Program-made: the position numbers and the translations under genes
Assembly (NCBI GenBank): GCA_001790095.1
Contig: MGBH01000001.1
Location: 930,001 to 962,000, forward strand
Length of the DNA: 32,000 nt
Direction of reading: 5' to 3'
DNA from: Candidatus Saccharimonadota bacterium
GTDB lineage: Bacteria > Patescibacteriota > Microgenomatia > UBA1406 > GWC2-37-13
Notes under the pieces: generated by a model
Database searches by the model: none
Told to the model about the DNA's origin: nothing
What the model saw: the letters and a program-made list of their open reading frames with translations, nothing else
Part shown: positions 4,950 through 21,832 of the stretch, piece by piece
How positions within the stretch are numbered: the first letter of the stretch is position 1
How the letters are laid out: each line of letters begins with the position of its first letter

Positions 4950-7900
4950 ATGATAAAGATAAATACCGACTCTATTTTTCAATTTGTAAAGGCGCTTAAA
5001 AGAAAAAGTGTTCCAAAGAATGAAATTAAGCGCAGGCTTCTTTCTGTGGATAGGTTTATCAAATGGGCTCACCAGAAGAGCTATCTGGCAGATGATACGT
5101 TTAAGCAGATACAAGATGAGATTGCCAAGTTAGCGATTGGAGATCAGAGACTAGAGATTGGTAATCAATTTCCAATCACTAATCGCCAATCGCTAATCTC
5201 TAATTATTCTTTCGGCATCCAGCATTATATTGGTTTTGCTATCATATTTGTCCTCATGGCCATGCTTGGAGCAGGGCTTTATAATCAGTTCTTTAAAAAA
5301 ACACCTACACCGTTTGCATATTCAACTACTCCCCTACAAGGTGCTCGTGTCATTTCATTTCAAGGAAGATTGACTGATAGTTTGGGTAATCCCATCATCG
5401 CCCCCATCGATATCACCTACAATTTTTATACTGCACCATCTGGAGGATCTCCTATCGCCGGCTCTACTCGCGTATGTACGGCCAATCCTGATCAAGATGG
5501 AGTTTTTGCCAATCTCATAGGAGATGACAGCGGTCCTAGCTGTTCAACTCAACTTCCAGCTAACATTTTTACCGAAAATTCTGAAGTATTTCTTGGCGTC
5601 ACGATCGGATCAGAGATAACTGAGATGAGTCCTAGACAACAGATTGCGAACGTAGGATATGCCATGAATGCAGAGACACTTCAAGGCCTGCCTCCTGGCA
5701 CAACCGCATCATCAATTCCATTTATCAGTGCGCAAGGTGACCTGCTTATCGCAGCCTCAACTCCTGGTATACGTTCAACATATACGACAGCAAATTTTGT
5801 TATATCCAGTGCTCAAGCAACTACTATCCAATCAGCAAATGGAGGGGATATTACATTCAACGCAACAGATGGAGGCACACTTCGTTTTAATACTTTTAAT
5901 GGAACTTTAAACGAACGGATGACTATTACTCCCTATGGAAACGTGGGGATAAGCAATACCAATCCACGAGCTTCTCTTGATGTCATAGGAGATGCCTCTC
6001 TTTCAGGCAATCTTGTCTTTAATGGTCTAACCTCTCAGATCAGACAATTAAATGGCGGCAATTTATCTTTTGTTACATCCCCTGGTGGAGATCTTGGAGT
6101 CTCAACCAAAATGACACTCCTTAATAACGGAAATCTTGGTATTGGAACAACTGTTCCTATCTATAAACTTGATGTTGCAGGTGCTGCTTCAATCGCAGGC
6201 AATCTTATGACTGGCGGACAGATGCAGCTCGGAAGATTTGTAGCAGATCCGACAGCAGTTGGATCAGGGTCTATGTACTTTAATACAACAAACAACACTA
6301 TCTACTACTATAACGGAACTGACTGGACACAGGTCGGATCTGGTGGAGGCGGAGGTGACAATGTATGGCAACGGGTACTTGATGGAGTGGTCATACCTAA
6401 AATAGCTGCTGATGCACTTAATCTCGGCAACTCTGCAACAGCCTCAGCTACCGTGCACTTAGCTGGAAAAACAGGAGATAATTCATTTATAAATACGGGT
6501 AATTTTGGCATTGGGACGACAGGACCTGCTATGAAGCTGGATCTTGGAACAGGGTATTCAACAAACAACTCAACATTCAGAACAGGAACATATGAATTAC
6601 AACCATATGCATTAAACAACGCTTTTCTTGCGGAAAATGCTTATTATAACGGTTCTACCTGGACAAGGAGAAATACTGGATATGCCGAAGGATTTCAGTT
6701 TTTTAATGGTCAGACTTTATTCTTCAATAACACCAGTGGAACTGGTAGTTTTTCTGCAACTTATCCGTTCAAGACCGATTCTGGCAACTCCGGATCAGTA
6801 GCTCTCGGAGGAAATATTAATACAGCAACAGGTAATTATAGTGGTTCATCAATGGTTGTTTTAGGTACTGGCAACGTCGGAATTGGCACTACCTCTCCCC
6901 TTGAAAAACTTGATGTCCGTGGTAATGCCACAGTATCTGGATATCTCACGATCGGACAGAGTGGAGCTTTAAGAAGTCAGTATGGTCCTCTTAACTTAGC
7001 ATATAAGTCTGGAGTGAACTCATGGACTACGGGAATGGTGCTTAAGGATGGAAGTGGTAATGTAGGGATTGGAACTACTAATCCAGAAACCAAATTACAT
7101 GTATATACCAGTACCGCAATAGGAACATATCGAGATATTTATGCAAAACAAATTATTGACGATGCAGATGCAAGACTCCAAATTAGATCGGGTGATACGG
7201 GCAACTATGGCTCAGGATTAATTCTCTCAACAGCGGATAAAAGCTGGGCAATGATGGCACAAGCAAGCTCAGATAATAATAATTTTTATATAGGCTATAA
7301 ATCAAGCGCAACCGATGAAGATATAATGGCTGGTTCATCAAAGCACTTTACTATCAATACCTCTGGAAATGTTGGAATCGGGACAACAAATCCCCTTGAA
7401 AAACTTGATGTCCGTGGTAATGCCACAGTATCTGGATATCTCACGATCGGACAGAGTGGAGCTTTAAGAAGTCAGTATGGTCCTCTTAACTTAGCATATA
7501 AGTCTGGAGTGAACTCATGGACTACGGGGATGGTATTGCAGGATAGTACAGGCAATGTTGGAATCGGGACATTAAATCCTACTTCTTTTAAACTTGAGGT
7601 TGCAGGTGACATAGGCCCTGAAGCAGATAATACTCGTGATTTAGGTTCTGCATCACGCTATTGGAATACTATCTACGTAAATAATATCGTGGGAAGTGGA
7701 GCTTTGGGATATTGGCAGATAGATAGTAATGTTCTTCATCCTGCTAATCAATGGGCGTCTGTTGTTGATTTAGCAATTGGTGGAACATCTACTTCATCTG
7801 CTAAATTTCAAGTATACGGAAGTGGTACCAATGCAGGAACAGCATCTTCATCAGGACAACTCACTTTCAACAATAATTCAGGAACGCATTATGTCAACTC

Positions 7901-10900
7901 ACTTTGGAACCGTCCCCTATCCTTCCGCACTTCCCCTGGTGGAGATACAGGACTGACAGATAGATTATATATTGCAGCAAATGGCAATGTGGGAGTGGGG
8001 ACGACAAATCCAGTGGCAAAACTGGATATTAAAGGAACTTTCTCCTCTGAAGTTGGATATTCATCTTACACTGGCGATGGTGTTTGGAATGCAAATGCTC
8101 GACCTTCTAAAATTATTACGCCGAATTTGCATGAATTGCGATTTGGTTACTCTGATGCAGGAGGAGGTCAATATTATCCATCTATCGGTTTTGCAGCAAA
8201 TAGTACTGCCGTAAATGATTCTCTATTAATTCTCCAGTCAAGAGTCGCTTTAGGTACACCAGAATCATACAATCGATGGCAAGTAAGCGGAGGGGGAACA
8301 ATCAGCTGGGGTGCAGGAAGTGGTGCGGTTGATACAAACCTCTATCGCGTTGCAGCTAATATATTAGGCACCGATGACACACTATATGTAGGCGGCAATA
8401 TAGGCATCGGTACAACTTCCCCCCTTGAAAAACTTGATGTCACAGGCAATGCATCTGCCTCAGGATATGTCACGGTCGGACAAGCAGGAGCTTTAAGAAG
8501 TCAATATGGTCCGCTTAATCTTGCATACAAATCAGGATTAAATACCTGGACAACGGGGATGGTGTTAAAGGATGGAACGGGATATGTGGGGATTGGAACA
8601 ATTAATCCAACGTATTTATTAGATGTATCAGGCGGATCTGGAATTGTGGGAAGATTTAGCGGAAGAGTGATTGGAGGCGATGCAGTTGCTTCAAATGAAT
8701 TCGTAACGTTCGGTCAGTTGGCTGGAGGATCAGGACAGTATTGGCAAAGATCAGGAGAAGCTTTATCACCAAGCAATATTTGGAACTCAATAAATGTGGG
8801 AGCAACTGCAACAGCATCTGCTTATGTACATCTTGCAGGTACTCCGAATGAAAACTCATTTGTAAATACAGGAAATTTTGGCATTGGAACTATCTCTCCT
8901 GTTGCTAAACTTGATGTAGTAGGTAATGCAAGCATCTCCGCTTCTTTATCTTATAGAAGTGGAGCCCCAAATTATGTAAATGTATTAGGTAACCAACCTC
9001 TATCATTCCGAACTTCACCAGGAGGTGACGCAGGATTAACTGATAGATTTACTCTCTTGGCAAATGGAAATATAGGTATAGGAACAACAGCGCCTGCTAC
9101 AAAACTTGACATCGACACAAGTTCAAATACAACCGGATTGCGACTTCGCGGATTAGCGGAAACTGTTGAGATATCAGATATCTATGTTGGATCAAATGGC
9201 ACATTCATATTAGATAATACAGTCGGAACAGGTAGTAGTGGATATATTGATCTTCGTCCTGAAGATAATGATTATGGCATGGTCCTTCGTGAATCCGACG
9301 GTACAGGAACAGGCTCATTTGCCAATTTTTATGTCGTTGACGCTGCTACAGACTACATGAATATTATCGTCAATGGAGCTCAATCAACAACAGGATTGGT
9401 TGTAAATGCAAACGGAAATGTGGGGATAAACAATACTTCCCCCCTTGAAAAACTTGATGTCACAGGCAATGCATCTGCCTCAGGATATGTCACGGTCGGA
9501 CAAGCAGGAGCTTTAAGAAGTCAATATGGTCCTCTTAACTTAGCATATAAGTCTGGAGTGAACTCATGGACTACGGGGATGGTTCTTCAGGATGGGACAG
9601 GAAACGTGGGGATTGGGACAACAAATCCAGTGGCAAAATTACAGGTCTATCCTGGATATACCACAGGAACATACAATGGTATCAATGTATCTGGCGGGAC
9701 AACAGGTGGAACTTATAACGCTTTCTCAACGGATGCATTTGTAAACAGTGGAGCTGGAACAGTTACCGGTTTATCGATCACCAGCAGGATACAAAACGCC
9801 GCTACTTCTTCTAATGCATACGGCATTAATGCTACTGTATATAAGGGTAGCGGTTCAACCGGAACGACAACTGCTATTTATGGAGCTAATTTAAGAGTTC
9901 TAAACTCAAGTAGTGATGTTATTACAGATACTTACGGTCTAAAAATAGCTGACATCTCAAATTCCGGAACCATGAGCAATACTTATGGAGTGTATGTAGG
10001 AGACATTACTGCTGGAACCCAAACCAATACCCCATTCTCATTTTATGCATCTGACGCAAACGCATTAAATTACTTTGCTGGAAATGTCGGAATAGGTTCA
10101 TCTGCTCCCACCTCCTTCAAACTTGAGGTTGCAGGTGACATAGGCCCTGATGCTGATGGTACTCGGGATATTGGTTCACCCTCCAGGTACTATGACACCG
10201 TCTATGCAAACAATGTGGTAGGACTTGGTGCTCTGGGATACTGGTCAAGAGGTACGGGCGTATTGTTTCCTTCAACCACCACTGATGGAGTAGCTGCGAC
10301 AGGTTCAGCAACCACCGTTGCAACATTCACCGCCTCAGGGACAAATGATGCAGCACGTTTGGGAGGATCAGCTAACTATATAACCGTATCCCCCAGTGGA
10401 GATCTTTCATTCACCGGAGCTAATGCTGATGCGATCAATAAAGTATCAGGGACGTTAAATATAAACACAACCAATAACCAGGCGATAACTACCGGGACTG
10501 GTCAGGTCACCTTGGCGGGTAATGTGGATGCCACCAACGGACTTGATGTGACTACCGCTAACCTTACGGTTGGAGGAGCAAACTTTACCGTGGTTCCGGG
10601 TACGGGAAATATCACAACAGCGGGTACTGTTTCCATTGCAACCGGTCAATCATACACAGGAGCAGGCACCGTAACCCTCTCCTCTGCTGCTGCATCGAGT
10701 CTTACCATCAACTCAGGAACAACCGGTGCCATAGCTATTGGGAATGATGCATCTGCCGAAACAATTGGTCTGGGTACTGGTGCGGCAGCAAAAACAATAA
10801 CCATAGGCAATACCACAGGCGCAACCGCACTCAATCAACGGGTGGGTACAGGGAACTATACTCTTGACGGAGTTGCTGGATCAACCTATGCGTTTGGTGC

Positions 10901-13900
10901 ATCAACAACCACTGGCACCATGACAATCGGAGGCACAGCACAGACAGGACTTCTCACTTTGGGACAAAGCTCTGGTACCAATATTGTTGCTATTGGATCA
11001 GGTACAGGAGCAACAACCGTACAGATAGCAAACGGCGCAACAAACGGAAAAACAGTACAGATTGCAACAGGAGCTGTTGCAAATACCGTTTCTATGGGAT
11101 CAACCACGGGCGCATCTGCTACTACTCTTAATGCTGGATCAGGGAATCTTACCCTAAATGCCACATCCGGCAATGTAGCACTTCAAACTACTACAGCCGG
11201 AAATATTACCCTTACGCCAGGAGGCACCGGAGACATAAACATCACGGCTGATGCCGACTCATTTGTAAATATTGCAGGCCTCACAGACAGCACTGGCACC
11301 AGTCTTTGTCTTGATGGTTCAAGCAATCTTATTACTTGTGCAGGAGGAGGCACAGGCAATACATTGCAGGCTGCATATGATAATGGAAATACCATCACCA
11401 CAACCACTGCAAGAAATATTGCATTTACTTTAGGAGAAGTTGCAACACCTACTTCCCTTACTCTTGAAAATCAAGACACAGCCGGAACAAATGCGCAGCG
11501 AATCTTTAATTCCATTGCTTCAGGAACATTGACTAATGGACTTCTGGTTGAACAAACAGGAGCGGGTACCATGACCAGCGGAATAAATATAACACAAACC
11601 GCCGGAACTATATCAAGCGGTCTTACTTTCACTGGGATAACCAATGATATTACAACCGGTGCAAACCAACACCTGGCCCTTATGCCAAATGGAACTGGCA
11701 ATGTGGGTATAGGAACAACAAGTCCTGCTTATAACTTAGAGATCGAGGACGTTGGTGATGCTGCGATATATTTAGAAGCTGATTCCGCCGGAACTGGATC
11801 AGAAGATAATAATGCGTTTATTAAACTGAGTCAAGATGGTTTGCTTGTACAATCAATATTTGGAACTGTAGGCAATGCTGGATATGATCCAGAAAATGTC
11901 GCATATACTAATACCTTAGCTAACGCAACACTCCTGGGAACCTTAGACAATAATGGAGCGCTTCAGTTTGGGACAAACGACGCAGTCCGTATGACAATTG
12001 CAGCAACTGGAAACGTAGGTATTGGGACAACTTCTCCCACTCTTTTTAACCTTCAAGTAACAGGCAATATAGGCCCAACTACTACAAACAACTATGATCT
12101 TGGATTAACAGGTACCAGATGGAGAACAGGATATTTTGGAACTTCTCTTGACTCTCCTTCTTTAACCTATGCAGGTACTCTTGCATTGTCTGCAACAGGA
12201 GCAAATATAATAACGATGTCAACCAATGGATCTGAGAGATGGAGAGTTGCATCCAATGGAGTACTTCAGTCAAACGGTGCACAAACCATACAGACCTCAA
12301 CCGGTAATCTTACTCTTGCAACAGCTGCAGGAAACGGACATATACTTCTTTCTCCAAATGGGACGGGAAATGTGGGGGTGGGGACAACAACACCCACATC
12401 TTTCAAACTTGAAGTTGCCGGTAATATCGGACCTGATAGCGATATTACCAGAAATATAGGAGCATACAATAAGCGAATTGCCAATACATACACAGGAGTA
12501 ATTGATGAAAGCATATTTACCCAGGCAGGTGAAAATGCCATCAAGAATTCTGATCGTTACAATGGTGGACCGGGTGGATGGGGTACTGCGGCAAACTATT
12601 CTGAGGCTGTTGTGGTTGGGCCACAAGGAACAGAGGTACGAGCAATTACAAATTCAACTCCATTGAGCACGGCCGGATTATTAACTGATTATTTACCCGT
12701 TGATCCGAAAAAAGCATATCTGCTTGAATACTGGATCAAGCAGGATGACATAAGTGCAGGAACTGGAACAAATTATATTGGACGTGAAGAATATACAAGC
12801 GGTAAAGCTAATAATGACCAGGGAACCGGCCCGTACACGTGGGGCGGTCAAAAACCCCCTGCAGCAAATACATGGTATCATGTATATGGAATTATTCCTC
12901 CGCATGACTCAGGCGCTGAAGTAAGTCACACAGCAACAAACAGTACGATCACTCCTGGAACTGAGTATAAATTTTGGAGTTCATACACTGCCTATATCAG
13001 GGTTAAGATATATTTAAACTACAACCAACCAAATCCTTCACAGGTCTGGGTAACAGGAGTTGCACTTCGTCCCCTTTCAAGTGGCGGTGTTAATTCTTTT
13101 TTTGCTACACCAGGTGATGCCTCAACCTCGGGAAATCTTGCGTTTGTTACTGGGAAAACAGAAAGACTTACCATCACCTCTAACGGTAATGTTGGTATTG
13201 GTACTACTGCTCCTGCTACAGGCGCAAAATTGGATGTATATGGCGGACCTATCCGGCTTGGAGCAAATACTAGTGCAAACAACCAATTAAATACGACCGC
13301 CGGAAGTGCACCATCAGGAGACCTATATTGGGGCTCTCGAACAATCTGTGATGATTCGGGAAACTGCGGCACAGCCGGAGTGTCGCCTGATTCACTAGAC
13401 TATACAGAATTCCTAGATACCATGACTCTTGATGCAAATCTTATCTTGAATCAAACAACCTACACCTGGACGCAGAACTTTACCGGGACAACGACCACGG
13501 GCTACACTTACAATGCTAACTCTCTCACATCAGGTAAAGCTCTTAGTATCGCTTCTTCTGCTACTGCATTTACCGGCACATTAGCGCAAGTTTCTTTAAC
13601 AGGCAATAACGCCGCCAATACGGGTACCATATTTAAAGCATCTTCAAACGGAGCTTTAAATACCGGCACTGTTGCTATGATTACCAATCTGGGAGCCGGA
13701 ACATCATTTAGAGTAAATGATGAGACAGGAGATGCTGACACTACTCCATTTTTAATCGATGCAGGTGGCAATGTAGGAATAGGTACTACTTCACCTGTTT
13801 CTAAACTTCTTCTTGACGATGTTACTCCAACTATAACGGGATGGCAGAGTCTTACCATAAGAAGCACCGATGCTTTAGCTATAGATAAAGGAGGAACAAT

Positions 13901-16900
13901 CGGTTTTGGAGGCAAGTATACCTCAGGAGGCACATATGCAACATGGGCAGGTATAGCTGGATTGAAAGAAAATGCAACAGATTCAAATACTTCAGGATAT
14001 TTATCGCTGCGGACAAGAGCAAACGGAGGAAACCTAACAGAACAAATGAGAATTGCAAGTAACGGCAATGTCGGCATCGGCACTACAAACCCTTCTCTTT
14101 TTAAACTTCAAGTAACAGGCAATATAGGCCCAACTACTACAAACAACTATGATCTTGGATTAACAGGTACCAGATGGAGAACAGGATATTTTGGAACTTC
14201 TCTTGACTCTCCTTCTTTAACCTATGCAGGTACTCTTGCATTGTCTGCAACAGGAGCAAATATAATAACGATGTCAACCAATGGATCTGAGAGATGGAGA
14301 GTTGCATCCAATGGAGTACTTCAGTCAAACGGTGCACAAACCATACAGACCTCAACCGGTAATCTTACTCTTGCAACAGCTGCAGGAAACGGACATATAC
14401 TTCTTTCTCCAAATGGGACGGGAAATGTGGGTATAGGAACGACGGCGCCAAGCAATCCCCTTGCAGTCATCTCTACCACTACTCCTCAGCTTCGTGTTGG
14501 TTATGACAACACAACCAATTACTTCACATCGGCAGTTGCTTCAAACGGATCAGTCACGTTTAACGCTAATGGAGCATCTGCCGCCTTTACTTTTTCAGAT
14601 CCTACTACAATATCCTCAACCGCAAATCCTGGGCTCACTGTAGGTAACGGTACGACGGGTTATCTGAAAATCGGCGGTTCAACCATATCTGATGCTGCAG
14701 GAAACCTCACATTAGATAGTGACAGTGGTACTATCAGCGCTTCAGATATTTTAAACATGGGTTGGAACGCCATAACTGGCGCATGGATAGGAGATGCTGA
14801 TTCTTATGGAGGCGGAGGATATAACAATATCGCAAATCATAACAATAATCTTATCCGAGCGGATGAAAAGGAAACCGTTACCATGAATAATGGTTGTGAT
14901 GCAGGATCAATCGCTAATATGTTTGATGGTGACCCTTCAACTATTTGTCAACTCACTGATGCTGCACCCAATGAGATCATTACTATAGATATGGGAAGCT
15001 ATGAGCATTATTGGACAGGGTTTGAGATCATGTGGACATATGATCGAGGTACTAACAACGTAACAATAGAAAAATACTGGGATCCTGACTCAACAGGTGG
15101 CTGTGATACGTGGGCAACCATTTATAGCGGAGCAGCTACAGGATACTCTACAAAAGTAAATGCGCCAGGCAATTATATATGTCAGTACCGCATCACAATA
15201 ACTGGTACGCCAGATGTTGCAAATGATGTTCGTATCGGAGACATACGAGGGTTCCAATATTATAACGACCAGAAAAATGATCTATATGCCGATATTACCG
15301 GCGCTACTTTTTACGGTGCAGTACAAGTTGGAACATCTACGACGAACAGAGACCTTGATGTATATGGCAATGTCGGCATAGTCTCCAGTAACACCACCGG
15401 TACCACAACCAGTAGTAGTCTTGGTCTTTCTGCCAACTCCCTCACAACCGGAACAGGTTTGTACGCTGCTTCATCTACCCTAACCTCAGGTAAATTAGTA
15501 GATCTTCAGGTGAGTGGGACTGCTGCAGCTGCATCTCAAACAGGACTTAATATTCTAACTGCCGGTGCCAATGGTACTGCGGGTATCACTTCTTATGGTG
15601 CACAAATATCAAATACCCATACAGGTACTACCTCTACTAATGTTGCCCTCTATCTCAATGCCTCAGGGGGTACTACAGCAAACTATGGTTTGATTGTAAA
15701 CGCTGGTAATGTGGGTATCGGAACGACAGCACCGGGAGCAAAACTTGACGTGTATAATCCATCAGGCACCACCCTTGCTTTAGCAGCCCAGGTCCAAAAC
15801 CTTAATAATGCAACTGGTCAAAATGGGCTTCTTGTCAATGTCGCCCGTGTGACTACAGATGATGCCACATACGGACTCAATGTCCAAGGAGGCGGCACAA
15901 GCCGACTTTACGTGAGAGGTGACGGATTTGTGGGTATTGGTACTACCGCCCAATCAGCCAACTGGCCTACTGATCTGCTTTTTATAAACGGTGAATTTAC
16001 TGCTGACAAATTCAATGATTCAGGAAGCAATAACCGCTATATTGATCCCAATGGCACCTCACGAATAAGCTATCTTGAGATGAGAAACGATCTCACCTTT
16101 ATTGACGCCGGCAATGCCGGCATCGGTAAAATCAACTCAAACGGAAGTTCTGTTATTATTGAAGGCCCTACTGGAGGCACAACAGACCTCTGTGTTGAGG
16201 ATCCTGATACTGGAACAGGCGGAGAATGTGACGGTAAAATCGACGCAGGTACCATCGACCCTCCCTACACTATAAATGGGAAAAAATATGCTACATACAT
16301 GGCCTCCATGACAGGGGTCAAAGAAGAAACTACCGATACCGTACATATTGAGTCAAAGATAGCAGAAGGCAGATATGCGTATGTTATTGACTTTAATAAT
16401 CAACCCATTGGATCTGACTTATGGCTTTTTAGTAAAACAACTCATCTTAAAGATAACCTAGATCATATGAGCGTTCTTCTCACTCCAACTGATGATACAC
16501 GGACGTGGTACAAAGTAGATAACACCGGAGATCATCTCACCCTTATTCTTTATTCTTCACGACCAACACAGATATCATATCGACTTACTGCTCCACGCTT
16601 CAATGCTGAAAATTTTGCCAATATTAGACCAGATAATGCTCCTGGCGGATTCTTGATAAACGATCCCGATATCATAGGTTCCCCCTATACTATCACTGAA
16701 GTTGGATCTTTAACCGATACGCATCATATAGCTTCAACTCAACCAACCAATACCTCGCTTGAAAGCTTAAGAGAGACAATATATCAAGTTGTGCACAACA
16801 CAAGCGGAGAAATGATAGAAGAGGTAGCAGTTTTCAACAAAATATTGATAGGTAAAATCCAGGCTGGTTTTGTGGAAGCACAAAATGCTGTTGTGACCAA

Positions 16901-18263
16901 CGTATTAAACGCTTCACATATCGTATCTGAAAATATTTCAAGCTATTCGCTACAAGTCACAAAACTTTTTGTAAACGAAAAGATAATCAGCCCGATCGTT
17001 GAGACTACAGATCTGTCAGCCTCAGGTACTGCAACTCTTGCGACTATAAAGACCGATACCATCAAACCGCAAGAACAAAATGTCACGATAGACCTCAATA
17101 CTTCTTCAGACAAAGGTACATTTGCCAAGCTCATCGTAAACGGTATCAACAATATAACTGTTGCATCTATTGATGAAGCAGGTAACGCTACGTTTGCAGG
17201 CTCCCTGACTAGCGTATCAGTGATCAGTGATCAGCTGTCAGTAAATGATGCAACCATATCAGGAAGTCTAACTGCCAATGAGGCCAGTCTTTCGGGTAAA
17301 CTCATTGCGAAAGAGATTGTATCTGATAATATCAGCGAGCTTACGGAAAGAACCGCCGCGGTTGAGGAGCAAAGCGGGAAAACCGCGGAGGTTAATGAGG
17401 TTTTGAGCAACAGTATTAATCAGGTTCAACAGGATCTTGCGGCGATAAAAAACCTACCTCTCCCTAACCCCGCCTATTATCAAAATTTGAGTGACTACCC
17501 TGTTGCAACTGTTTCTTCACTTCTTGCTCAATCAATTCAGACAGAAGATCTTACTGCGACTGGCAATGTAAACCTTTACAAAGCCTCAATCGCTGATTCC
17601 CTCACGGCCGGAACTATTTTTATGCAGGATAACTCTATCCTCTCTCTTTCATGGGAGCTCAAACTTTCAGCTCTTGCTCAGATCACTCTTTTTGACGGAA
17701 GTGTGGTCATCGCAAAAAATGGAAACATTACTACAAAAGGAGAACTCATCGCTGAGGGAGGAGTCCGGACGGATGAAATACAATCAATCGATGGAAAAAA
17801 AGACATCGCTATCAAACTAAATTCTCAATTGTCAAATTCCAATGAAAATTCATTGAAAAATGCAAAATTGAAAATTGAAAATTCCGAAGGCATGGATGTT
17901 GCCTCAATCGATGCCTCAGGCGCAGCCCGTCTCAACAGTTTAGCCTTCACTCATATATCTACCAACTCTGCTATCATTGCTGATTCAGGAGAACGCACTG
18001 TGGATGATGAAATCATCCCGGCTATTGAAACCAATGCTGAGGTGGCAGGTACCGGAGTCCTGCCCGTGGATGCACCGGAGATTATAATATACAATAATAG
18101 TGTTACGGCAGATTCTCTCATCTATCTGACTCCGATTGGTGAAACGCCAATCAATCAGCTCACGGTTGTGAAAAAGGAGATACATGGCCGTCCATATTTC
18201 TCAGTCTCATCCGGTACTACTCTCCATCCAGAGATCAAGTTTAATTGGTTGATTATAAACTAG
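4950..18263 (+). CDS. Giant (4437 aa) N-terminally membrane-anchored surface protein with tail-fibre-like repeats and lectin-like modules
   Basis: A single uninterrupted ORF. About 90 aa form a cytoplasmic head, followed by one TM helix (YIGFAIIFVLMAMLGAGLYNQFF, ~5226-5290). By my count there are about 25 copies of the motif GNVGIGTTxPxxKLDV/KLEV, often followed by G(D/N)IGPxxDxTRDLGSxSxRW. That signature is typical of phage tail-fibre-domain proteins. The protein also contains a G/T/A-rich beta-helix-like tract (~10260-11300), a CBM-like module, a discoidin-like module and a long C-terminal stalk. Confidence 0.9.
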   Translation: MIKINTDSIFQFVKALKRKSVPKNEIKRRLLSVDRFIKWAHQKSYLADDTFKQIQDEIAKLAIGDQRLEIGNQFPITNRQSLISNYSFGIQHYIGFAIIFVLMAMLGAGLYNQFFKKTPTPFAYSTTPLQGARVISFQGRLTDSLGNPIIAPIDITYNFYTAPSGGSPIAGSTRVCTANPDQDGVFANLIGDDSGPSCSTQLPANIFTENSEVFLGVTIGSEITEMSPRQQIANVGYAMNAETLQGLPPGTTASSIPFISAQGDLLIAASTPGIRSTYTTANFVISSAQATTIQSANGGDITFNATDGGTLRFNTFNGTLNERMTITPYGNVGISNTNPRASLDVIGDASLSGNLVFNGLTSQIRQLNGGNLSFVTSPGGDLGVSTKMTLLNNGNLGIGTTVPIYKLDVAGAASIAGNLMTGGQMQLGRFVADPTAVGSGSMYFNTTNNTIYYYNGTDWTQVGSGGGGGDNVWQRVLDGVVIPKIAADALNLGNSATASATVHLAGKTGDNSFINTGNFGIGTTGPAMKLDLGTGYSTNNSTFRTGTYELQPYALNNAFLAENAYYNGSTWTRRNTGYAEGFQFFNGQTLFFNNTSGTGSFSATYPFKTDSGNSGSVALGGNINTATGNYSGSSMVVLGTGNVGIGTTSPLEKLDVRGNATVSGYLTIGQSGALRSQYGPLNLAYKSGVNSWTTGMVLKDGSGNVGIGTTNPETKLHVYTSTAIGTYRDIYAKQIIDDADARLQIRSGDTGNYGSGLILSTADKSWAMMAQASSDNNNFYIGYKSSATDEDIMAGSSKHFTINTSGNVGIGTTNPLEKLDVRGNATVSGYLTIGQSGALRSQYGPLNLAYKSGVNSWTTGMVLQDSTGNVGIGTLNPTSFKLEVAGDIGPEADNTRDLGSASRYWNTIYVNNIVGSGALGYWQIDSNVLHPANQWASVVDLAIGGTSTSSAKFQVYGSGTNAGTASSSGQLTFNNNSGTHYVNSLWNRPLSFRTSPGGDTGLTDRLYIAANGNVGVGTTNPVAKLDIKGTFSSEVGYSSYTGDGVWNANARPSKIITPNLHELRFGYSDAGGGQYYPSIGFAANSTAVNDSLLILQSRVALGTPESYNRWQVSGGGTISWGAGSGAVDTNLYRVAANILGTDDTLYVGGNIGIGTTSPLEKLDVTGNASASGYVTVGQAGALRSQYGPLNLAYKSGLNTWTTGMVLKDGTGYVGIGTINPTYLLDVSGGSGIVGRFSGRVIGGDAVASNEFVTFGQLAGGSGQYWQRSGEALSPSNIWNSINVGATATASAYVHLAGTPNENSFVNTGNFGIGTISPVAKLDVVGNASISASLSYRSGAPNYVNVLGNQPLSFRTSPGGDAGLTDRFTLLANGNIGIGTTAPATKLDIDTSSNTTGLRLRGLAETVEISDIYVGSNGTFILDNTVGTGSSGYIDLRPEDNDYGMVLRESDGTGTGSFANFYVVDAATDYMNIIVNGAQSTTGLVVNANGNVGINNTSPLEKLDVTGNASASGYVTVGQAGALRSQYGPLNLAYKSGVNSWTTGMVLQDGTGNVGIGTTNPVAKLQVYPGYTTGTYNGINVSGGTTGGTYNAFSTDAFVNSGAGTVTGLSITSRIQNAATSSNAYGINATVYKGSGSTGTTTAIYGANLRVLNSSSDVITDTYGLKIADISNSGTMSNTYGVYVGDITAGTQTNTPFSFYASDANALNYFAGNVGIGSSAPTSFKLEVAGDIGPDADGTRDIGSPSRYYDTVYANNVVGLGALGYWSRGTGVLFPSTTTDGVAATGSATTVATFTASGTNDAARLGGSANYITVSPSGDLSFTGANADAINKVSGTLNINTTNNQAITTGTGQVTLAGNVDATNGLDVTTANLTVGGANFTVVPGTGNITTAGTVSIATGQSYTGAGTVTLSSAAASSLTINSGTTGAIAIGNDASAETIGLGTGAAAKTITIGNTTGATALNQRVGTGNYTLDGVAGSTYAFGASTTTGTMTIGGTAQTGLLTLGQSSGTNIVAIGSGTGATTVQIANGATNGKTVQIATGAVANTVSMGSTTGASATTLNAGSGNLTLNATSGNVALQTTTAGNITLTPGGTGDINITADADSFVNIAGLTDSTGTSLCLDGSSNLITCAGGGTGNTLQAAYDNGNTITTTTARNIAFTLGEVATPTSLTLENQDTAGTNAQRIFNSIASGTLTNGLLVEQTGAGTMTSGINITQTAGTISSGLTFTGITNDITTGANQHLALMPNGTGNVGIGTTSPAYNLEIEDVGDAAIYLEADSAGTGSEDNNAFIKLSQDGLLVQSIFGTVGNAGYDPENVAYTNTLANATLLGTLDNNGALQFGTNDAVRMTIAATGNVGIGTTSPTLFNLQVTGNIGPTTTNNYDLGLTGTRWRTGYFGTSLDSPSLTYAGTLALSATGANIITMSTNGSERWRVASNGVLQSNGAQTIQTSTGNLTLATAAGNGHILLSPNGTGNVGVGTTTPTSFKLEVAGNIGPDSDITRNIGAYNKRIANTYTGVIDESIFTQAGENAIKNSDRYNGGPGGWGTAANYSEAVVVGPQGTEVRAITNSTPLSTAGLLTDYLPVDPKKAYLLEYWIKQDDISAGTGTNYIGREEYTSGKANNDQGTGPYTWGGQKPPAANTWYHVYGIIPPHDSGAEVSHTATNSTITPGTEYKFWSSYTAYIRVKIYLNYNQPNPSQVWVTGVALRPLSSGGVNSFFATPGDASTSGNLAFVTGKTERLTITSNGNVGIGTTAPATGAKLDVYGGPIRLGANTSANNQLNTTAGSAPSGDLYWGSRTICDDSGNCGTAGVSPDSLDYTEFLDTMTLDANLILNQTTYTWTQNFTGTTTTGYTYNANSLTSGKALSIASSATAFTGTLAQVSLTGNNAANTGTIFKASSNGALNTGTVAMITNLGAGTSFRVNDETGDADTTPFLIDAGGNVGIGTTSPVSKLLLDDVTPTITGWQSLTIRSTDALAIDKGGTIGFGGKYTSGGTYATWAGIAGLKENATDSNTSGYLSLRTRANGGNLTEQMRIASNGNVGIGTTNPSLFKLQVTGNIGPTTTNNYDLGLTGTRWRTGYFGTSLDSPSLTYAGTLALSATGANIITMSTNGSERWRVASNGVLQSNGAQTIQTSTGNLTLATAAGNGHILLSPNGTGNVGIGTTAPSNPLAVISTTTPQLRVGYDNTTNYFTSAVASNGSVTFNANGASAAFTFSDPTTISSTANPGLTVGNGTTGYLKIGGSTISDAAGNLTLDSDSGTISASDILNMGWNAITGAWIGDADSYGGGGYNNIANHNNNLIRADEKETVTMNNGCDAGSIANMFDGDPSTICQLTDAAPNEIITIDMGSYEHYWTGFEIMWTYDRGTNNVTIEKYWDPDSTGGCDTWATIYSGAATGYSTKVNAPGNYICQYRITITGTPDVANDVRIGDIRGFQYYNDQKNDLYADITGATFYGAVQVGTSTTNRDLDVYGNVGIVSSNTTGTTTSSSLGLSANSLTTGTGLYAASSTLTSGKLVDLQVSGTAAAASQTGLNILTAGANGTAGITSYGAQISNTHTGTTSTNVALYLNASGGTTANYGLIVNAGNVGIGTTAPGAKLDVYNPSGTTLALAAQVQNLNNATGQNGLLVNVARVTTDDATYGLNVQGGGTSRLYVRGDGFVGIGTTAQSANWPTDLLFINGEFTADKFNDSGSNNRYIDPNGTSRISYLEMRNDLTFIDAGNAGIGKINSNGSSVIIEGPTGGTTDLCVEDPDTGTGGECDGKIDAGTIDPPYTINGKKYATYMASMTGVKEETTDTVHIESKIAEGRYAYVIDFNNQPIGSDLWLFSKTTHLKDNLDHMSVLLTPTDDTRTWYKVDNTGDHLTLILYSSRPTQISYRLTAPRFNAENFANIRPDNAPGGFLINDPDIIGSPYTITEVGSLTDTHHIASTQPTNTSLESLRETIYQVVHNTSGEMIEEVAVFNKILIGKIQAGFVEAQNAVVTNVLNASHIVSENISSYSLQVTKLFVNEKIISPIVETTDLSASGTATLATIKTDTIKPQEQNVTIDLNTSSDKGTFAKLIVNGINNITVASIDEAGNATFAGSLTSVSVISDQLSVNDATISGSLTANEASLSGKLIAKEIVSDNISELTERTAAVEEQSGKTAEVNEVLSNSINQVQQDLAAIKNLPLPNPAYYQNLSDYPVATVSSLLAQSIQTEDLTATGNVNLYKASIADSLTAGTIFMQDNSILSLSWELKLSALAQITLFDGSVVIAKNGNITTKGELIAEGGVRTDEIQSIDGKKDIAIKLNSQLSNSNENSLKNAKLKIENSEGMDVASIDASGAARLNSLAFTHISTNSAIIADSGERTVDDEIIPAIETNAEVAGTGVLPVDAPEIIIYNNSVTADSLIYLTPIGETPINQLTVVKKEIHGRPYFSVSSGTTLHPEIKFNWLIIN
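5161..5206 (+). repeat. Degenerate heptanucleotide array (CYAATCN-type units) inside the cytoplasmic head of the giant ORF
   Basis: Units read as gtaatca(5161-5167) ... ccaatca(5172-5178) ctaatcg(5179-5185) ccaatcg(5186-5192) ctaatct(5193-5199) ctaatta(5200-5206). The region is translated as GNQFPITNRQSLISNY. Confidence 0.7.
6896..7033 (+). repeat. Cassette copy 1 (138-bp perfect direct repeat with 7391-7528)
   Basis: Compared base by base, with an offset of 495 nt (165 codons). It encodes SPLEKLDVRGNATVSGYLTIGQSGALRSQYGPLNLAYKSGVNSWTTG. Flanks diverge immediately on both sides. Confidence 0.95.
7391..7528 (+). repeat. Cassette copy 2 (138-bp perfect direct repeat with 6896-7033)
   Basis: See copy 1. 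The two are identical over 138 bp. Confidence 0.95.
8415..8512 (+). repeat. Cassette copy 3 (98-bp perfect direct repeat with 9435-9532)
   Basis: The offset is 1020 nt (340 codons). It encodes SPLEKLDVTGNASASGYVTVGQAGALRSQYGP. This is a variant of the same cassette as copies 1 and 2. Confidence 0.95.
9435..9583 (+). repeat. Cassette copy 4, mosaic: 5' part identical to copy 3, 3' part identical to copy 2
   Basis: 9435-9532 is identical to 8415-8512. 9525-9583 is identical to 7476-7534 (59 bp), whereas copy 3 differs there (ccgcttaatcttgcatacaaatcagg). The crossover falls within the shared tatggtcc. Confidence 0.9.
12051..12376 (+). repeat. 326-bp perfect direct repeat, copy A (with 14106-14431)
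   Basis: The offset is 2055 nt (685 codons). Identity was checked line by line and is supported by the identical antisense ORFs 12082..12300 and 14137..14355 in the track. It encodes LQVTGNIGPTTTNNYDLGLTGTRWRTGYFGTSLDSPSLTYAGTLALSATGANIITMSTNGSERWRVASNGVLQSNGAQTIQTSTGNLTLATAAGNGHILLSPNGTGNVG. Confidence 0.97.
12531..13075 (+). other. CBM4_9-like / jelly-roll carbohydrate-binding module within the giant protein
   Basis: The stretch ENAIKNSDRYNGGPGGWGTAANYSEAVVVGPQGTEVRAI...DPKKAYLLEYWIKQDD...NTWYHVYGIIPP...YIRVKIYLNY...VWVTGVALRP breaks the fibre-repeat pattern. It has the W / sG..v / Y.l..W.k / W..v spacing of CBM-type sandwiches. Recognition is by eye. Confidence 0.4.
14106..14431 (+). repeat. 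326-bp perfect direct repeat, copy B
   Basis: See copy A. There is one mismatch at 12050/14105 and the next at 12377/14432. Flanking sequence is clearly diverged. Confidence 0.97.
14821..15265 (+). other. F5/8 type C (discoidin/CBM32)-like module within the giant protein
   Basis: The stretch AGSIANMFDGDPSTICQL...EIITIDMGSYEHYWTGFEIMWTYDRGTNNVTIEKYW...CDTWATIYSG...YRITITG fits the a.n.fDGd..T.W...i.iDLG....i..i.i.W pattern of discoidin domains. Confidence 0.5.
17832..17883 (+). repeat. Copy of the dispersed heptamer-based module, in-frame in the giant ORF (SNSNENSLKNAKLKIEN)
   Basis: tcaaattccaatga (17832-17845) is 14/14 identical to the reverse complement of 28628-28641. aaattcattgaaaaatgcaaaattgaaaattgaaaatt (17846-17883) matches the reverse complement of 28575-28612 at 36/38. 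Confidence 0.9.
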
Positions 18264-18283
18264 TTTTACATCATTTGAGATGG

Positions 18284-18395
18284 TAGTCTGGATTCCCACC
18301 TTCGTGGGAATGACAGTACAAAGCAGGAATGATAATCAGGAATGATAATACAGAACTAATAGAAGTCATCCCTGCGTAGGCAGGGATCCAGTCTA
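18284..18395. repeat. 112-bp twin-hairpin element with 31-bp imperfect terminal inverted repeats and an internal 13-bp tandem duplication
   Basis: Hairpin 1 is ATTCCCAC(18292-18299)-cttc-GTGGGAAT(18304-18311). Hairpin 2 is ATCCCTGC(18368-18375)-gtag-GCAGGGAT(18380-18387). Arms 18284-18314 and the reverse complement of 18365-18395 match at 23/31, with compensatory stem changes. caggaatgataat occurs twice in tandem (18324-18336, 18337-18349). The motif GGAATGA(C/T)A occurs three times. Confidence 0.85.
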
Positions 18396-18411
18396 TTAAA
18401 ACATCTTTCCC

Positions 18412-18441
18412 TTGACAATTATATCGCAACTATATTACATT
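18412..18441 (+). promoter_or_regulatory. Sigma70-type promoter candidate for the second fibre gene, with a very short leader
   Basis: TTGACA lies at 18412-18417, then an 18-nt spacer, then TACATT at 18436-18441. The ATG at 18452 is 10 nt after the -10 element. No SD motif is present. Confidence 0.3.
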
Positions 18442-18451
18442 GATACTATAC

Positions 18452-21400
18452 ATGAAAAACTCCCTCAAACCTCATCAAGATTTCATGAGGTTCAAAATAT
18501 ATTCATATATGAGACATGTTGTTGTTTTACTTACCTTTTTTTTGCTTTTTGGATTTTTTACATATAAATTGATTGTCTTTGTCAAAGAAACTTATGCAGT
18601 AGTCGGAGATCTCGATATCGTCGGATCAGCCACTACCATTGAAGTACTATCAACTAAAACAGGATCACTCACCCTTGACACAACAGCATGTAAAAATCTA
18701 CAGGGCGTTCCTCGCCCCCTCTTAAAAGCCGCTAGCACCATCGGAGGAATTGACTGTGACACTTCTATAACCATAGCCGCAGCTGGAGCACTCACCGCAG
18801 GCACTTATAACGGTCAGACCATATCATCAGCTTCAAATTTGACAGGCAGTCTTACGGTTGCAAGCGGACTTACAGTATCAGCCGGCGCCATAACGCTTCC
18901 TGATAATTCCATTGCTTCTGCTGATGTGAACTTTAACTATGCAGCCGCTGCAAGCAAAGGAGGAGCGGCAACTGATTTATCTTGTACTAATTGTGTCGCG
19001 CTTACAACAGAAACCGCCGGTAATTATATCGCCACAATTACCGGTAACGGCCAAGTTGGGGTAGCGGGCTCAGGAGCAGAGAATGCTGCTGCTACACTCA
19101 GTATCGTTGCTGACTCAATTGGCGACACCCAGCTTGCCTATAACACAGGACAACACTTAACCACAACGAACGCTCCCACTTTTGCAGGAGGAACATTTAC
19201 CAGTACTGTTAATATGGCAGATACAAAGTATCTTTTTATGGGAGATGCAAGTGCTGGTAATTATTTTGGTTCAAATGGTACTTATCTAACCATGTATAAC
19301 GGTGGAGCGTCAGGTCTTTCTTTTTACGTCCAACAAAGCATACCTATTACATATATCTATTCGCCAAACATTTTTTTTGGCCTTGCAGCTGGAGGTACTT
19401 CGATACACACCCGAGGATCTACGGTCAATTTCGGTGAAACTGGCAATATAGGAGTAGAGAATTTTTATATGAGTTCAGCTGAAAGATTGAACTTTTTTTA
19501 TTCCAATGGAAGCACTGCCACTCAGGTCGGCGATATATCTGCATCTGATGCTTCTTGGTTTCGTATCAATCAAAATACGGTAAAGAATATCTTTACGCCC
19601 CAATATATTCGAGCTGATTCCGGATTGTTTGTCAAAAGTACCTCCTATGGTATAAGCTCTAATGGAATTCTGTTAAATGGTTCTTTATCTGGCACCTACT
19701 CAAACGCTCTTACTCTTAGTAGTGCTTCAAATGCATATTCAGGAGCTTCTCTTGCAGTAAGTGGTAATATAACGAGTTCTGCTGGAGATTTAACCATATC
19801 TGGTGGAAATATCTCAATTACTAATAATGCCGGTGGTGTTGATTTCAACGATGCTAATTCTTACTGGCTCCGCACCGCTACAAACCACGGCTTATACTGG
19901 GATACCACCAACAATACTTGGGAATGGCACTCTGCAGGTGTTGACAAATGGCGTGTTGACCTAAGTGGAAATACTGTTCAAGCTGGTGATCTCACTGTTT
20001 CTGGAACAGGTAATAGCTCTTTTGCTGGCAACGTCTACTTAACTGGCAATGTGGCTGTAGCTGGCATGTCTGCCATCCCTGCTACGTACAACAATACTAA
20101 TATTCTACCCAATCCCAGCTTTGAAGTGGCTACCAGCACTAACTACGACGGGTGGGCAGGTTCTGCCAGTGGCGGAACCGTCACTAGAACATCTAATGGG
20201 ATTTCCAATCACGATGGCGCCTATGGAATGGAACTGAATGTGACAACGGCAGGAACCGGCACTACCAATATTAATTCCACTCGACAACCGATTAGTCCAT
20301 CGACTACATATACGCTTTCAACCTGGGCTAAGGTTAATACTGCTTGTGGAGATGGCTTTCACCTTCGCGCCTACTGGATGAATGCAGCGGGAGCCTATAT
20401 TTCTGTCTCTGATCCTTACAGTAATTCTGGTGCCGTCACCACCTCATGGAATCTATATAAAGGAAATGTCACTTCTCCTGCCACTGCCTATAGTGTAAGA
20501 ATCTATATTTATAATAACCTGCCAACCAATGCCTGTACCCTCTATGTTGATCAGGTATCATTCAGACCAATGATTGACGCTGATGTACTCGTTAACGGCA
20601 ACGTGGGTATCGGCACAACAGTTCCAGCTGACAAACTTCATACTACAGGCTCTATAAGAGTAAATGGCGCAATAGCAAATGGACTTAAGTTCACATCCAA
20701 TGGAACCACAAGTTCAGATCATCTTCTTACCACACGAGGGGGCACAAGCTGGTTATATCTGAGAAATTGGGCAGATGACACATATAAAAACTTGGCAGTA
20801 GGTACGCTATACGGCGCAACCAGCATCACAGTGCCTGGTACATCAGATAGCTATATCATGGGAGACGTCGGTATTGGTACGACAGCTCCTGCGAATAAAC
20901 TCCATGTTAATGGTAATATAAGCCTAAGCACCAATATAAAGTTTACAGGAGGCGTTCCTACACTAGAAACTGCATTCGATGATTTTATATTTAAAATGGA
21001 TACGGATGCAACCAGTGGAAATGGTAGATTTGGCTTTTTTCAAGGAGCAACAGAAATGGTCGTGTTCAAAGGTAGCGGTAACGTCGGTATTGGTACAACA
21101 GCTCCTGCGAATAAACTCCATGTTAATGGTCAAATCAGATGGTATGGACGAAGCTACGTTGACTTTACGAATAATTACATGGATCAGGCGAGTCCTTACA
21201 TTGAAGTTAGAAATGGATTTACCGGTGGACTTTTCGGTATAACTGCATATGCTTCTTCTCTAAGGTTCAAAAAAAATATTACTCCGCTTGAGGTTGATTC
21301 GAATAAGATCTACGATCTCCGTCTTGTGTCATTTAACTGGAAGTCCCAAGAAGATGGTCAAATCAAGGCAATGGGCATGATTGCAGAGGAAGTAGACAAA

Positions 21401-21832
21401 ATACTTCCGCAAGTAGTAGCCTACGATAAAGAAGGTCCCCATCATATTGATTATGGTCTTTTGTCAGTGCTTACCATCAAAGAACTTAAAAAGCTGAATC
21501 ATGATATTGGTTTGACGAGCACGGGAGATATTCATATGATTGAAGATTCAAATGGCGGATATGATTTGAAAACCAAAGATGATACATTTTTTACCCGAAT
21601 AGGCGCTTTTGCTGAATTAGTTGCGGCGAAAATGCAGGCGGGTGTTATAGAGACCAAAAAGTTGCTCATCAACGGAGTTGATCTTATGAAAAAAATAACT
21701 GATCTTGAAAACCATAATGATGCCCTGCAGCAACAAGTGGACAAACTTAAACAGGAAAACACTGCTTTGAAAAATCAACAGACAAATCTAGAAAAACGTT
21801 TGGAAGTATTAGAGCAAAAGATAAGAAACTAA
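18452..21832 (+). CDS. N-terminally anchored tail-fibre-like protein with CBM-like module and Peptidase_S74 intramolecular-chaperone domain
   Basis: The track ORF starts at TTG 18440. I prefer ATG 18452 (MKNSLKPHQDF...). The protein has a TM anchor (VVVLLTFFLLFGFFTYKLIVFV) and three GNVGIGTTxPAxKLH motifs. It also has a CBM-like module, the S74 signature ASSLRFKKNITPL...MGMIAEEV...IDYGLLSVLTIKELKKL, and a C-terminal coiled coil (DLENHNDALQQQVDKLKQENTALKNQQTNLEKRLEVLEQK). Confidence 0.88.
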   Translation: MKNSLKPHQDFMRFKIYSYMRHVVVLLTFFLLFGFFTYKLIVFVKETYAVVGDLDIVGSATTIEVLSTKTGSLTLDTTACKNLQGVPRPLLKAASTIGGIDCDTSITIAAAGALTAGTYNGQTISSASNLTGSLTVASGLTVSAGAITLPDNSIASADVNFNYAAAASKGGAATDLSCTNCVALTTETAGNYIATITGNGQVGVAGSGAENAAATLSIVADSIGDTQLAYNTGQHLTTTNAPTFAGGTFTSTVNMADTKYLFMGDASAGNYFGSNGTYLTMYNGGASGLSFYVQQSIPITYIYSPNIFFGLAAGGTSIHTRGSTVNFGETGNIGVENFYMSSAERLNFFYSNGSTATQVGDISASDASWFRINQNTVKNIFTPQYIRADSGLFVKSTSYGISSNGILLNGSLSGTYSNALTLSSASNAYSGASLAVSGNITSSAGDLTISGGNISITNNAGGVDFNDANSYWLRTATNHGLYWDTTNNTWEWHSAGVDKWRVDLSGNTVQAGDLTVSGTGNSSFAGNVYLTGNVAVAGMSAIPATYNNTNILPNPSFEVATSTNYDGWAGSASGGTVTRTSNGISNHDGAYGMELNVTTAGTGTTNINSTRQPISPSTTYTLSTWAKVNTACGDGFHLRAYWMNAAGAYISVSDPYSNSGAVTTSWNLYKGNVTSPATAYSVRIYIYNNLPTNACTLYVDQVSFRPMIDADVLVNGNVGIGTTVPADKLHTTGSIRVNGAIANGLKFTSNGTTSSDHLLTTRGGTSWLYLRNWADDTYKNLAVGTLYGATSITVPGTSDSYIMGDVGIGTTAPANKLHVNGNISLSTNIKFTGGVPTLETAFDDFIFKMDTDATSGNGRFGFFQGATEMVVFKGSGNVGIGTTAPANKLHVNGQIRWYGRSYVDFTNNYMDQASPYIEVRNGFTGGLFGITAYASSLRFKKNITPLEVDSNKIYDLRLVSFNWKSQEDGQIKAMGMIAEEVDKILPQVVAYDKEGPHHIDYGLLSVLTIKELKKLNHDIGLTSTGDIHMIEDSNGGYDLKTKDDTFFTRIGAFAELVAAKMQAGVIETKKLLINGVDLMKKITDLENHNDALQQQVDKLKQENTALKNQQTNLEKRLEVLEQKIRN
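20098..20570 (+). other. CBM4_9-like carbohydrate-binding module
   Basis: The stretch NILPNPSFEVATSTNYDGWAGSASGGTVTRTSN..HDGAYGMELNV...STTYTLSTWAKV...TSWNLYKGNVTSPATAYSVRIYIYNN...LYVDQVSFRP matches the classic N.sFE....gW ... G..sl.v ... Y.ls.W.k ... dd.s. pattern. Confidence 0.55.
21251..21510 (+). other. Peptidase_S74 (endosialidase/tail-spike C-terminal intramolecular chaperone) domain
   Basis: A-S-S-L-R-F-K-K-N-I aligns with the family motif S-D-R-R-L-K-E-N-I. The candidate nucleophile Ser is at 21254-21256, and the Lys five residues later is at 21269-21271. The downstream pattern GMIAEEVDKILPQVV...IDYGLLSVLTIKELKKL matches the rest of the domain. Confidence 0.7.

Follow-up and report, generated by a model that had tools for sequence, protein, structure and literature searches.

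How does a single bacterial gene come to hold the same 326 nucleotides twice, and does such a pair serve the gene as a switch of protein length? The question is raised by a giant open reading frame (ORF) of Candidatus Roizmanbacteria, which encodes a tail-fibre-like protein and lies in the stretch of 32,000 nucleotides (nt) analysed here (contig MGBH01000001.1, positions 930,001 to 962,000 of the forward strand), called the window below. The original prediction, which was made from the sequence of the window, explained the repeat, here named R, by recent gene conversion between diverged paralogous modules, and saw in it a built-in switch able to delete or duplicate 685 codons. Our analysis points to R as, probably, a recently copied whole module of a modular tail-fibre-like surface protein, transferred through conversion or cassette replacement. 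The features on which this reading depends are the following (aa, amino acids):

4950-18263, plus strand: giant fibre ORF of 4437 aa, tail-fibre-like
12051-12376, plus strand: copy 1 of R, a 326-nt perfect repeat encoding LQVTGNIGPTTTNNYDLG...SPNGTGNV, one whole fibre module
14106-14431, plus strand: copy 2 of R, the same 326 nt as copy 1, 685 codons downstream
12009-12050, plus strand: generic motif upstream of copy 1, GNVGIGTTSPTLFN; its counterpart at copy 2 is 14064-14105, and the 0.60 nt identity between them equals the background
12366-12398, plus strand: generic GNVG(V/I)GTT motif downstream of copy 1, in which the identity tract stops (GNV/G, the slash marking the border); its counterpart at copy 2 is 14421-14453

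The repeat and its borders

The two copies match at 326 of 326 bases, just as had been predicted, and both lie within the giant ORF, each of them starting at codon position 1. Their offset is 2055 nt, so the arithmetic of an in-frame deletion or duplication of 685 codons, also part of the prediction, is correct. R is the longest exact repeat of the window, followed by repeats of 138, 98, 59 and 53 nt, and by simple arithmetic an exact repeat of 326 nt is expected by chance in 32 kb about 10^-187 times. The identity extends slightly beyond the upstream border, where positions 12041-12049 also match between the copies and produce a tract of 336 nt, with a sole mismatch at 12050 (Asn/Lys). Outside this tract the similarity decays quickly: about 60 nt upstream are identical in register at about 65%, with a third-codon-position pattern, about 15 nt downstream are partly similar, and past both flanks the in-register identity is random (about 25-30%).

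These borders are best read on the protein, which is composed, downstream of its transmembrane (TM) helix, of about 24 modules delimited by motifs of the GNVGIGTTxPxxKLxV type; 24 instances of the motif were counted in the giant ORF. R starts a few codons past one motif (TTSPT/LFNLQV...) and stops inside the next one (…NGTGNV/G), and thus comprises one complete module. The N-terminal half of this module is of the collar type (GNIGP…YDLG…RWR…Y), and its C-terminal half, ERWRxxSxGxLQSNGAQTIQTSTGNLTLATAxGNGxILLSPNGTGNVGIGTT, is strongly conserved across many relatives. Scans of metagenome contigs and GTDB genome contigs with the R peptide returned distant relatives only, and over the C-terminal half none of these exceeded 86% aa identity. 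An AF2 model of R built from 20 sequences is beta-rich and of moderate confidence (pLDDT 71.6); compared with the PDB it has no significant match, and phage tail fibres rank top.

Two other identities were considered for R and not retained. Designed propellers of the PQQ type (Cake/Scone) appeared as hits in the PDB sequence comparison (E 1e-10), but these targets consist of perfect repeats, which inflate the total scores. A template repeat/variable repeat (TR/VR) pair of a diversity-generating retroelement (DGR) does not fit a repeat with zero mismatches, both copies of which are coding sequence in the middle of a gene, in a window that holds no reverse transcriptase.

Two side observations touch on these candidates. 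Within R (window 12120-12370), two RWR-centred segments lie about 45 aa apart (GTRWRTGYFG… and GSERWRVASNG…) and align weakly with single PQQ-type beta-propeller blades, at E values of about 2-6 per blade, which are not significant; a trimer giving two such blades per chain would form a six-bladed ring. Elsewhere in the window, an ORF of 99 aa (25585-25884, plus strand) has a match to 23S_rRNA_IVP and a weak match to bAvd, the four-helix-bundle accessory protein of DGRs.

Two copies in independent assemblies

The identical 4437-aa protein is encoded on five NCBI contigs longer than 1 Mb, namely those of Candidatus Roizmanbacteria GCA_001790045.1 and of four sibling bins from the RIFOXY series of the Rifle aquifer. 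Four other assemblies of the same population were compared with the window: L079 (SAMN03842443), L080 (SAMN03842448), L083 (SAMN03842442) and L084 (JGI 3300025087). L080 and L083 read through both copies of R contiguously and without any N, and agree there with the window at 100%. In L079 copy 2 is complete, but a gap of 100 Ns takes the place of window 12106-12321, the contigs of L079 stopping 55 nt inside each edge of copy 1; L084 begins 99 nt before the end of copy 1 and continues through copy 2. A k-mer assembler usually breaks in this way where a repeat is genuine, and the placing of the breaks bears out the border positions.

All the junctions of the two-copy order (L1/R and R/R1 for copy 1, L2/R and R/R2 for copy 2) recur in other assemblies of the population, and with all four of them supported a single-copy artefact is excluded. 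An assembly duplication, which the original prediction had named among the findings that would speak against it, is therefore scarcely credible. It would leave a single genomic copy of R, and nothing specific argues for it beyond the generic risk of metagenome assembly. Unique sequence adjoins each copy to the left and to the right, the spacer of 1.7 kb is unique in-frame coding sequence and the same arrangement was recovered by different assemblies in at least four samples, which effectively refutes it.

A subtler artefact would concern the identity of the copies and not their number: slightly different copies could have been homogenised by bubble collapse, or the gap in copy 1 filled with mixed reads. 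An assembler of the de Bruijn type passes twice through a node that two copies share and removes small bubbles, and a few true differences between the copies may be hidden in this way. The interior of copy 1 is a gap of 100 Ns in L079, and the L084 contig starts within copy 1; moreover, for another repeat of the gene the window has one unit with a patch V, and the scaffolds of L079, L080 and L083, which were probably produced by SPAdes (gaps of 100 Ns, overhangs of 55 nt), have a patch V' and two units. In all the assemblies (the source genomes, three ENA scaffolds and one JGI contig), however, R was found in a single version, whereas V and V' both surfaced for the other repeat, and contig breaks lying a k-mer length away mark the same borders, 12051 and 12376. 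A partly artefactual identity is for these reasons unlikely.

Exchange between modules of the same gene

Analysis of mosaicism and phylogenetic incongruence needs at least three paralogues, and R has two copies; it was run on another family of modules of the giant gene:

6853-7129, 7348-7624, 8377-8653 and 9397-9673, plus strand: four copies of the D1 module, forming a conversion mosaic

Overall the D1 modules are 67-77% identical at the nt level, and it is the contrast between the 68-77% of other paralogous modules of the gene and the 100% of R that argues for recent copying of R. Among the D1 copies there are perfect tracts of 138 nt (6896/7391), 98 nt (8415/9435), 59 nt (7476/9525) and 53 nt (6981/9525), whose pairings are incompatible with one another. 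In its 5' half D1d agrees with D1c over a run of 19 consecutive informative sites, and in its 3' half with D1a/b over a run of 13; the maximum chi-square of this mosaic is 25.1, a value reached in 0 of 2000 permutations (p<0.0005). L079 and L080, which are independent assemblies, have the D1 region base for base as in the window, hence the mosaic was not made by one assembler. Non-reciprocal intragenic exchange between modules is thus demonstrable in the giant gene, and R is the largest and the most recent of several intragenic transfer tracts. The prediction of a recent gene conversion holds as far as recency (100% against 68-77%) and non-reciprocal exchange (D1) are concerned; at R itself, conversion is not separable from duplicative insertion.

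The D1 copies also appear in P0125, the product of another assembly (SRR3989339). Here the upstream part of D1 copy 4 runs into the downstream flank of D1 copy 3 and the sequence then ends, the crossing point being the shared perfect tract of 98 nt (window about 9397-9530 joined to 8510-8650). P0125 has three amino-acid differences from the window. It is either a variant with a tandem duplication or the outcome of a mis-join or loop that arose at the repeat.

Similar repeats in related loci

About 75 related loci, each of at most 12 kb, were fetched with the R peptide, and perfect in-frame intragenic repeats of 100-809 nt are present in about 6 of them. In their fibre ORFs, L016 contains repeats of 365 and 180 nt and L017 of 385, 381, 320 and 293 nt, and one such repeat each is found in L061 (809 nt), L070 (475 nt), L057 (139 nt) and L018 (120 nt). 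Every repeat of at least 100 nt has an offset divisible by 3, and of the shorter ones only two repeats of 46 nt in L058 depart from this. With similar repeats so common in relatives, the R pair has no special architecture, and by this comparison the repeat is typical of its gene family. The loci with perfect in-frame repeats (L016/L064, L017, L061, L070, L057, L018 and L065) are fibre genes of unrelated Patescibacteria and of other metagenome-assembled genomes, and in many of these repeats one end falls at the GNVGIGTT motif.

The ends of the repeat tracts are not scattered evenly with respect to the motifs. Overall, 19 of 34 ends lie at most 30 nt from a motif, against 19% expected; taking one pair per family leaves 20 independent ends, of which 13 are no farther than about 36 nt from a motif, where 19-26% would be expected (binomial p 8e-6 to 3e-4). 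Tract ends, in other words, tend to coincide with the motifs that delimit the modules. A literature search with the motif string found no paper.

Flanks of R and origin of the pair

The flanking peptides quoted in the original prediction are correct (TTSPTLFN and TTNPSLFK upstream, VGVGTTTPTSF and VGIGTTAPSNP downstream), but they do not make the surroundings of R a pair of otherwise diverged paralogous modules, since their likeness is that of the generic GNVGIGTTxP motif bounding every module. In fact, the upstream flanks of the two copies have 0.60 nt identity to each other, compared with 0.58-0.63 to the remaining 22 instances of the GNVGIG motif. Downstream, the two flanks show no relation to one another, each being nearest to other instances and absent from the eight best of the other (all at least 0.44). 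Comparison of the flanks with all 24 motif instances found no diverged remnant of an older R-type module beside either copy, and, judged from these alignments, the R tract covers the full extent of specific homology. As no older paralogue is left around R, conversion of a paralogue is not separable from duplicative cassette insertion or replacement between motifs.

We propose that one complete structural module of 326 nt would have been copied very recently between two positions of the giant fibre gene, through non-reciprocal recombination in the form of gene conversion or cassette replacement. The junctions, which lie in the conserved GNVGIGTTxPxxKL motif, suggest that this motif may have been used as short homology. 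From then on R would be a passive substrate, at which homologous recombination would occasionally delete or duplicate 685 codons in frame, and such changes of length would be a by-product of concerted evolution and not a selected switch.

Several points weigh against this proposal. There are two copies of R only and no remainder of an older paralogue, which makes conversion inseparable from duplicative insertion or unequal exchange. At present the motif flanks share about 60-65% of their nucleotides, which is less than classical RecA-dependent exchange requires, so the junction mechanism would need microhomology, or else other sequences once flanked the copies and were overwritten later. Selection that keeps modules intact, and not the mechanism of recombination, could explain why tract ends lie close to motifs. 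Finally, the perfect identity of R may be slightly overstated by bubble-popping, and the assemblers do disagree elsewhere in the giant gene, over a patch of 73 nt and a unit of 996 nt.

An alternative history is that R and the unique stretch (U) of 1.7 kb entered an ancestral gene with a single R, by homologous recombination at R. Both Campbell-type integration of an excised R-U circle and exchange with a paralogous fibre gene could be the route, and both leave the order R-U-R. This history accommodates a tract that is a whole module with nothing homologous beyond it, and the fibre genes of the population look mosaic between strains (the C-terminal part of contig L081 and the 996-nt unit that is present or absent, both described below). 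Against it, no donor gene or single-R allele was found, and because it predicts the same present-day sequence as conversion it gains no specific support. We regard insertion as improbable and retain the copying of a whole module by conversion or cassette replacement.

Length variation and the question of a switch

A deletion between the two copies would affect the following features:

12377-14105, plus strand: unique inter-repeat segment of 1729 nt, which recombination of R with R would take out together with one R
12492-13079, plus strand: discrete beta-rich module of about 195 aa

The inter-repeat segment contains a collar-type motif, the beta-rich module and three more motif-bounded modules. 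The beta-rich module had been described as resembling a carbohydrate-binding module (CBM): a discrete module of about 195 aa, rich in beta structure, is indeed present, but CBM is at most a putative label for it, as neither Pfam nor NCBIfam has a match to 12492-13079 and the AF2 model is unusable (pLDDT 44.6). One clear homologue, P0003, is 56% identical to it and likewise stands directly after a motif; a sequence search with the module returned no match, its word index having evidently missed P0003.

Variants at R itself were looked for in several collections. The junctions L1-R-R2, expected of a deletion, and L2-R-R1, expected of a duplication, are found neither in the five source contigs nor in L079, L080, L083 and L084, and among the matches listed for contigs with the upstream or downstream neighbour genes there is no deletion or duplication junction at R either. 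A constructed deletion-allele protein has no exact match in a collection of 15 billion sequences, which is a weak negative. The comparison of siblings suggested in the original prediction shows the same two-copy order in all nine sequences inspected; the structure at R is uniform at the consensus level, a state that the prediction had itself named as speaking against a switch.

The gene does differ between assemblies at a neighbouring repeat:

10080-10627, plus strand: 548-nt unit that starts exactly at a GNVGIG motif, single in the window and duplicated in siblings

In sibling assemblies two such units lie 996 nt (332 codons) apart, and the product has 4769 aa (4437 + 332). In L083 (1-2120) the two units differ at only 2 sites and each starts at the first codon of the motif; the stretch between them, about 450 nt and coding, is missing in the window. 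L079 (7161-8370) and L080 (8824-10040) have the layout with two units too, one of them as a gap. The unit of the window has 22 differences, clustered in 10298-10370, which are found in none of L079, L080, L083 and L084. The form of 4437 aa is confirmed only in the five NCBI contigs; in each of the four other assemblies inspected the extra unit is present, either whole or with a gap. As the 996-nt difference tracks the source of the assembly, collapse is favoured: there is a good probability that the true gene has two units (V' + V) and that each assembler collapsed them differently, the other possibility being a population with two alleles. The window may lack 996 nt of the gene. In-frame differences of whole units bounded by repeats are in any case a characteristic uncertainty or variation of the giant gene.

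A perfect direct repeat of 326 bp whose copies are separated by 1.7 kb offers a good substrate to homologous recombination, which will occasionally produce a deletion. As a substrate of this kind R must give rise to rare variants; selection for these variants, or their use, is not indicated. A functional and selected in-frame switch, toggling a block of 685 codons that would include a binding module, could appeal to this property and to the neighbouring repeat pair, which differs by exactly one in-frame unit between assemblies (4437 against 4769 aa). The predicted switch is nevertheless very improbable. No deletion or duplication junction was seen at R in the five source contigs or the four other assemblies, and the collection searched does not contain the deletion-allele protein that the switch predicts. 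The spacing by a multiple of 3, which had been taken as meaningful, is what any two identically translated copies within one ORF must show, as with all the repeats of at least 100 nt in relatives, among which similar repeats are common. The 996-nt difference, following the assembly source, suggests assembly collapse.

The giant protein and its neighbourhood

The N-terminus of the 4437-aa protein is an integrase-SAM-like/core-binding segment, which is followed by one predicted TM helix (about aa 93-111). Pfam and NCBIfam scans of the whole giant protein and of six segments matched no family, and in these scans no S74 intramolecular chaperone domain was found in the ORF, which would therefore encode a fibre of the non-S74 type. 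Significant similarity to tail-fibre families is instead provided by PHROG profiles, with matches to phrog_9942 (E 3e-17 and 8e-20) and phrog_18345 (E about 1e-13). The protein has 609 detectable homologues, mostly from Patescibacteria, some of which are named "tail fiber domain-containing protein" in their sources. From this architecture we infer that it is a membrane-anchored extracellular fibre or adhesin.

The giant ORF adjoins a second gene of related kind:

18440-21832, plus strand: second fibre gene, with a Peptidase_S74 intramolecular chaperone (PF13884, E 2e-11)

The other genes around the giant ORF are ordinary cellular ones, coding for Rho, glutamate dehydrogenase, a thioredoxin-reductase-like protein and a LysM-M23 peptidase, and there are no tRNA genes within the window. 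The second fibre gene has a perfect in-frame repeat of 33 nt (20882-20914 and 21098-21130) in a region with the motif TAPANKLHVNG, that is, motif-associated identity at a small scale.

The integrase-SAM-like/core-binding domain of the fibre N-terminus is also found in a separate upstream ORF of 181 aa (4217-4762; PF13102, PF02899), and a homologue, P0094, is annotated as a site-specific integrase, yet it bears fibre modules. A domain of the DNA-binding type at the cytoplasmic end of an extracellular fibre (window 4950-5300) is an odd combination.

The C-terminal part of the second fibre gene differs in a JGI contig from another sample, L081, which is 100% identical to window 14979-20015. After …SGTGN this contig runs in frame into RTX-like GGxGxD calcium-binding repeats (5038-5836), which replace the C-terminal part encoded in the window. 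Two contigs of different assemblies start exactly at window 14979. L081 reflects either a strain-level swap of the tip or a chimeric contig.

Significance and comparison with known systems

Members of the candidate phyla radiation (CPR), or Patescibacteria, are thought to live attached to hosts, and little is known of how these hosts are recognised; giant tail-fibre-like surface proteins are plausible organelles for the attachment. If modules are copied as motif-bounded cassettes and homogenised by conversion, this would constitute a concrete and testable route to the diversification of adhesins. A single perfect repeat of 326 nt would, on its own, be ordinary concerted evolution in a modular surface protein, and the more interesting leads are the family-wide pattern of motif-bounded cassettes and the 332-codon discrepancy between assemblies. 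The latter also has a practical side: in metagenome-assembled genomes, the choice of assembler can change the length of giant repeat-rich genes by hundreds of codons (4437 against 4769 aa), and claims on repeat identity or copy number consequently need confirmation at the level of reads or by long reads.

A broader and much more tentative possibility, to which we give perhaps one chance in several, is that the GNVGIGTTxPxxKL-coding motif acts as the recombination anchor of a cassette system of Patescibacteria (CPR) that copies, swaps, gains and loses fibre modules within and between giant proteins. The R repeat, the 332-codon difference and the C-terminal replacement in the neighbouring gene could then be outputs of one process, active in a single aquifer population.

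Identical in-frame repeats are known from the group B streptococcal alpha C protein and the Rib family, where deletion of repeats alters protein size. As at R, the repeats are nucleotide-identical and in frame in a gene for a surface protein, and recombination between them shifts the length and keeps the frame. They differ in being tandem, with documented size variants, whereas the copies of R are dispersed, with a unique spacer of 1.7 kb, and no variant was found at R.

Conversion of the cassette type operates from pilS to pilE in Neisseria and in the MgPa repeats of Mycoplasma genitalium. The likeness is in the non-reciprocal copying of a segment with short conserved borders into an expressed gene for a surface protein. 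In the case of R, however, donor and recipient belong to the same ORF and are both expressed, silent cassettes are absent and nothing points to programmed variation.

In the tail-fibre adhesins of T-even phages, modules are swapped and duplicated with the mediation of motifs, namely the His boxes of gp37 and the glycine-rich motifs of gp38 (Trojet et al. 2011, PMC3157838, citing Tetart et al. 1996 and 1998). As in the giant gene, short conserved motifs delimit variable segments, and whole segments between motifs are duplicated or exchanged. The T-even genes are phage genes with another motif; here the gene is a bacterial one of 13 kb from the CPR, in which recombination at the motif is suggested by the ends of the tracts alone. 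If the motif cassette system envisaged above exists, it would be the cellular counterpart of T-even adhesin shuffling, diversifying host attachment.

The mosaic adhesive trimer (MAT) fibres of Bdellovibrio bacteriovorus are encoded by the cell and displayed on its surface, occur in S74 and non-S74 forms and are composed of mosaic domains (Caulton et al. 2024, PMC10769870). The giant protein differs from them in the organism, in its size of 4437 aa and in its N-terminal TM anchor, and it is known here from sequence. Comparison of the motif region with MAT chains gives marginal sequence similarity (8ojn, E 1e-3; Bd2133, 8ond, E 0.04), and the capping-loop motif of MAT fibres, V-G-G/N-pi-x-x-P-x-x-x-L, resembles V-G-I-G-T-T-x-P-x-x-K-L, with the register off by one residue. 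Moreover, the giant gene, of the non-S74 type, adjoins an S74 fibre gene, and by this analogy MAT fibres would be the closest described analogues of the giant protein.

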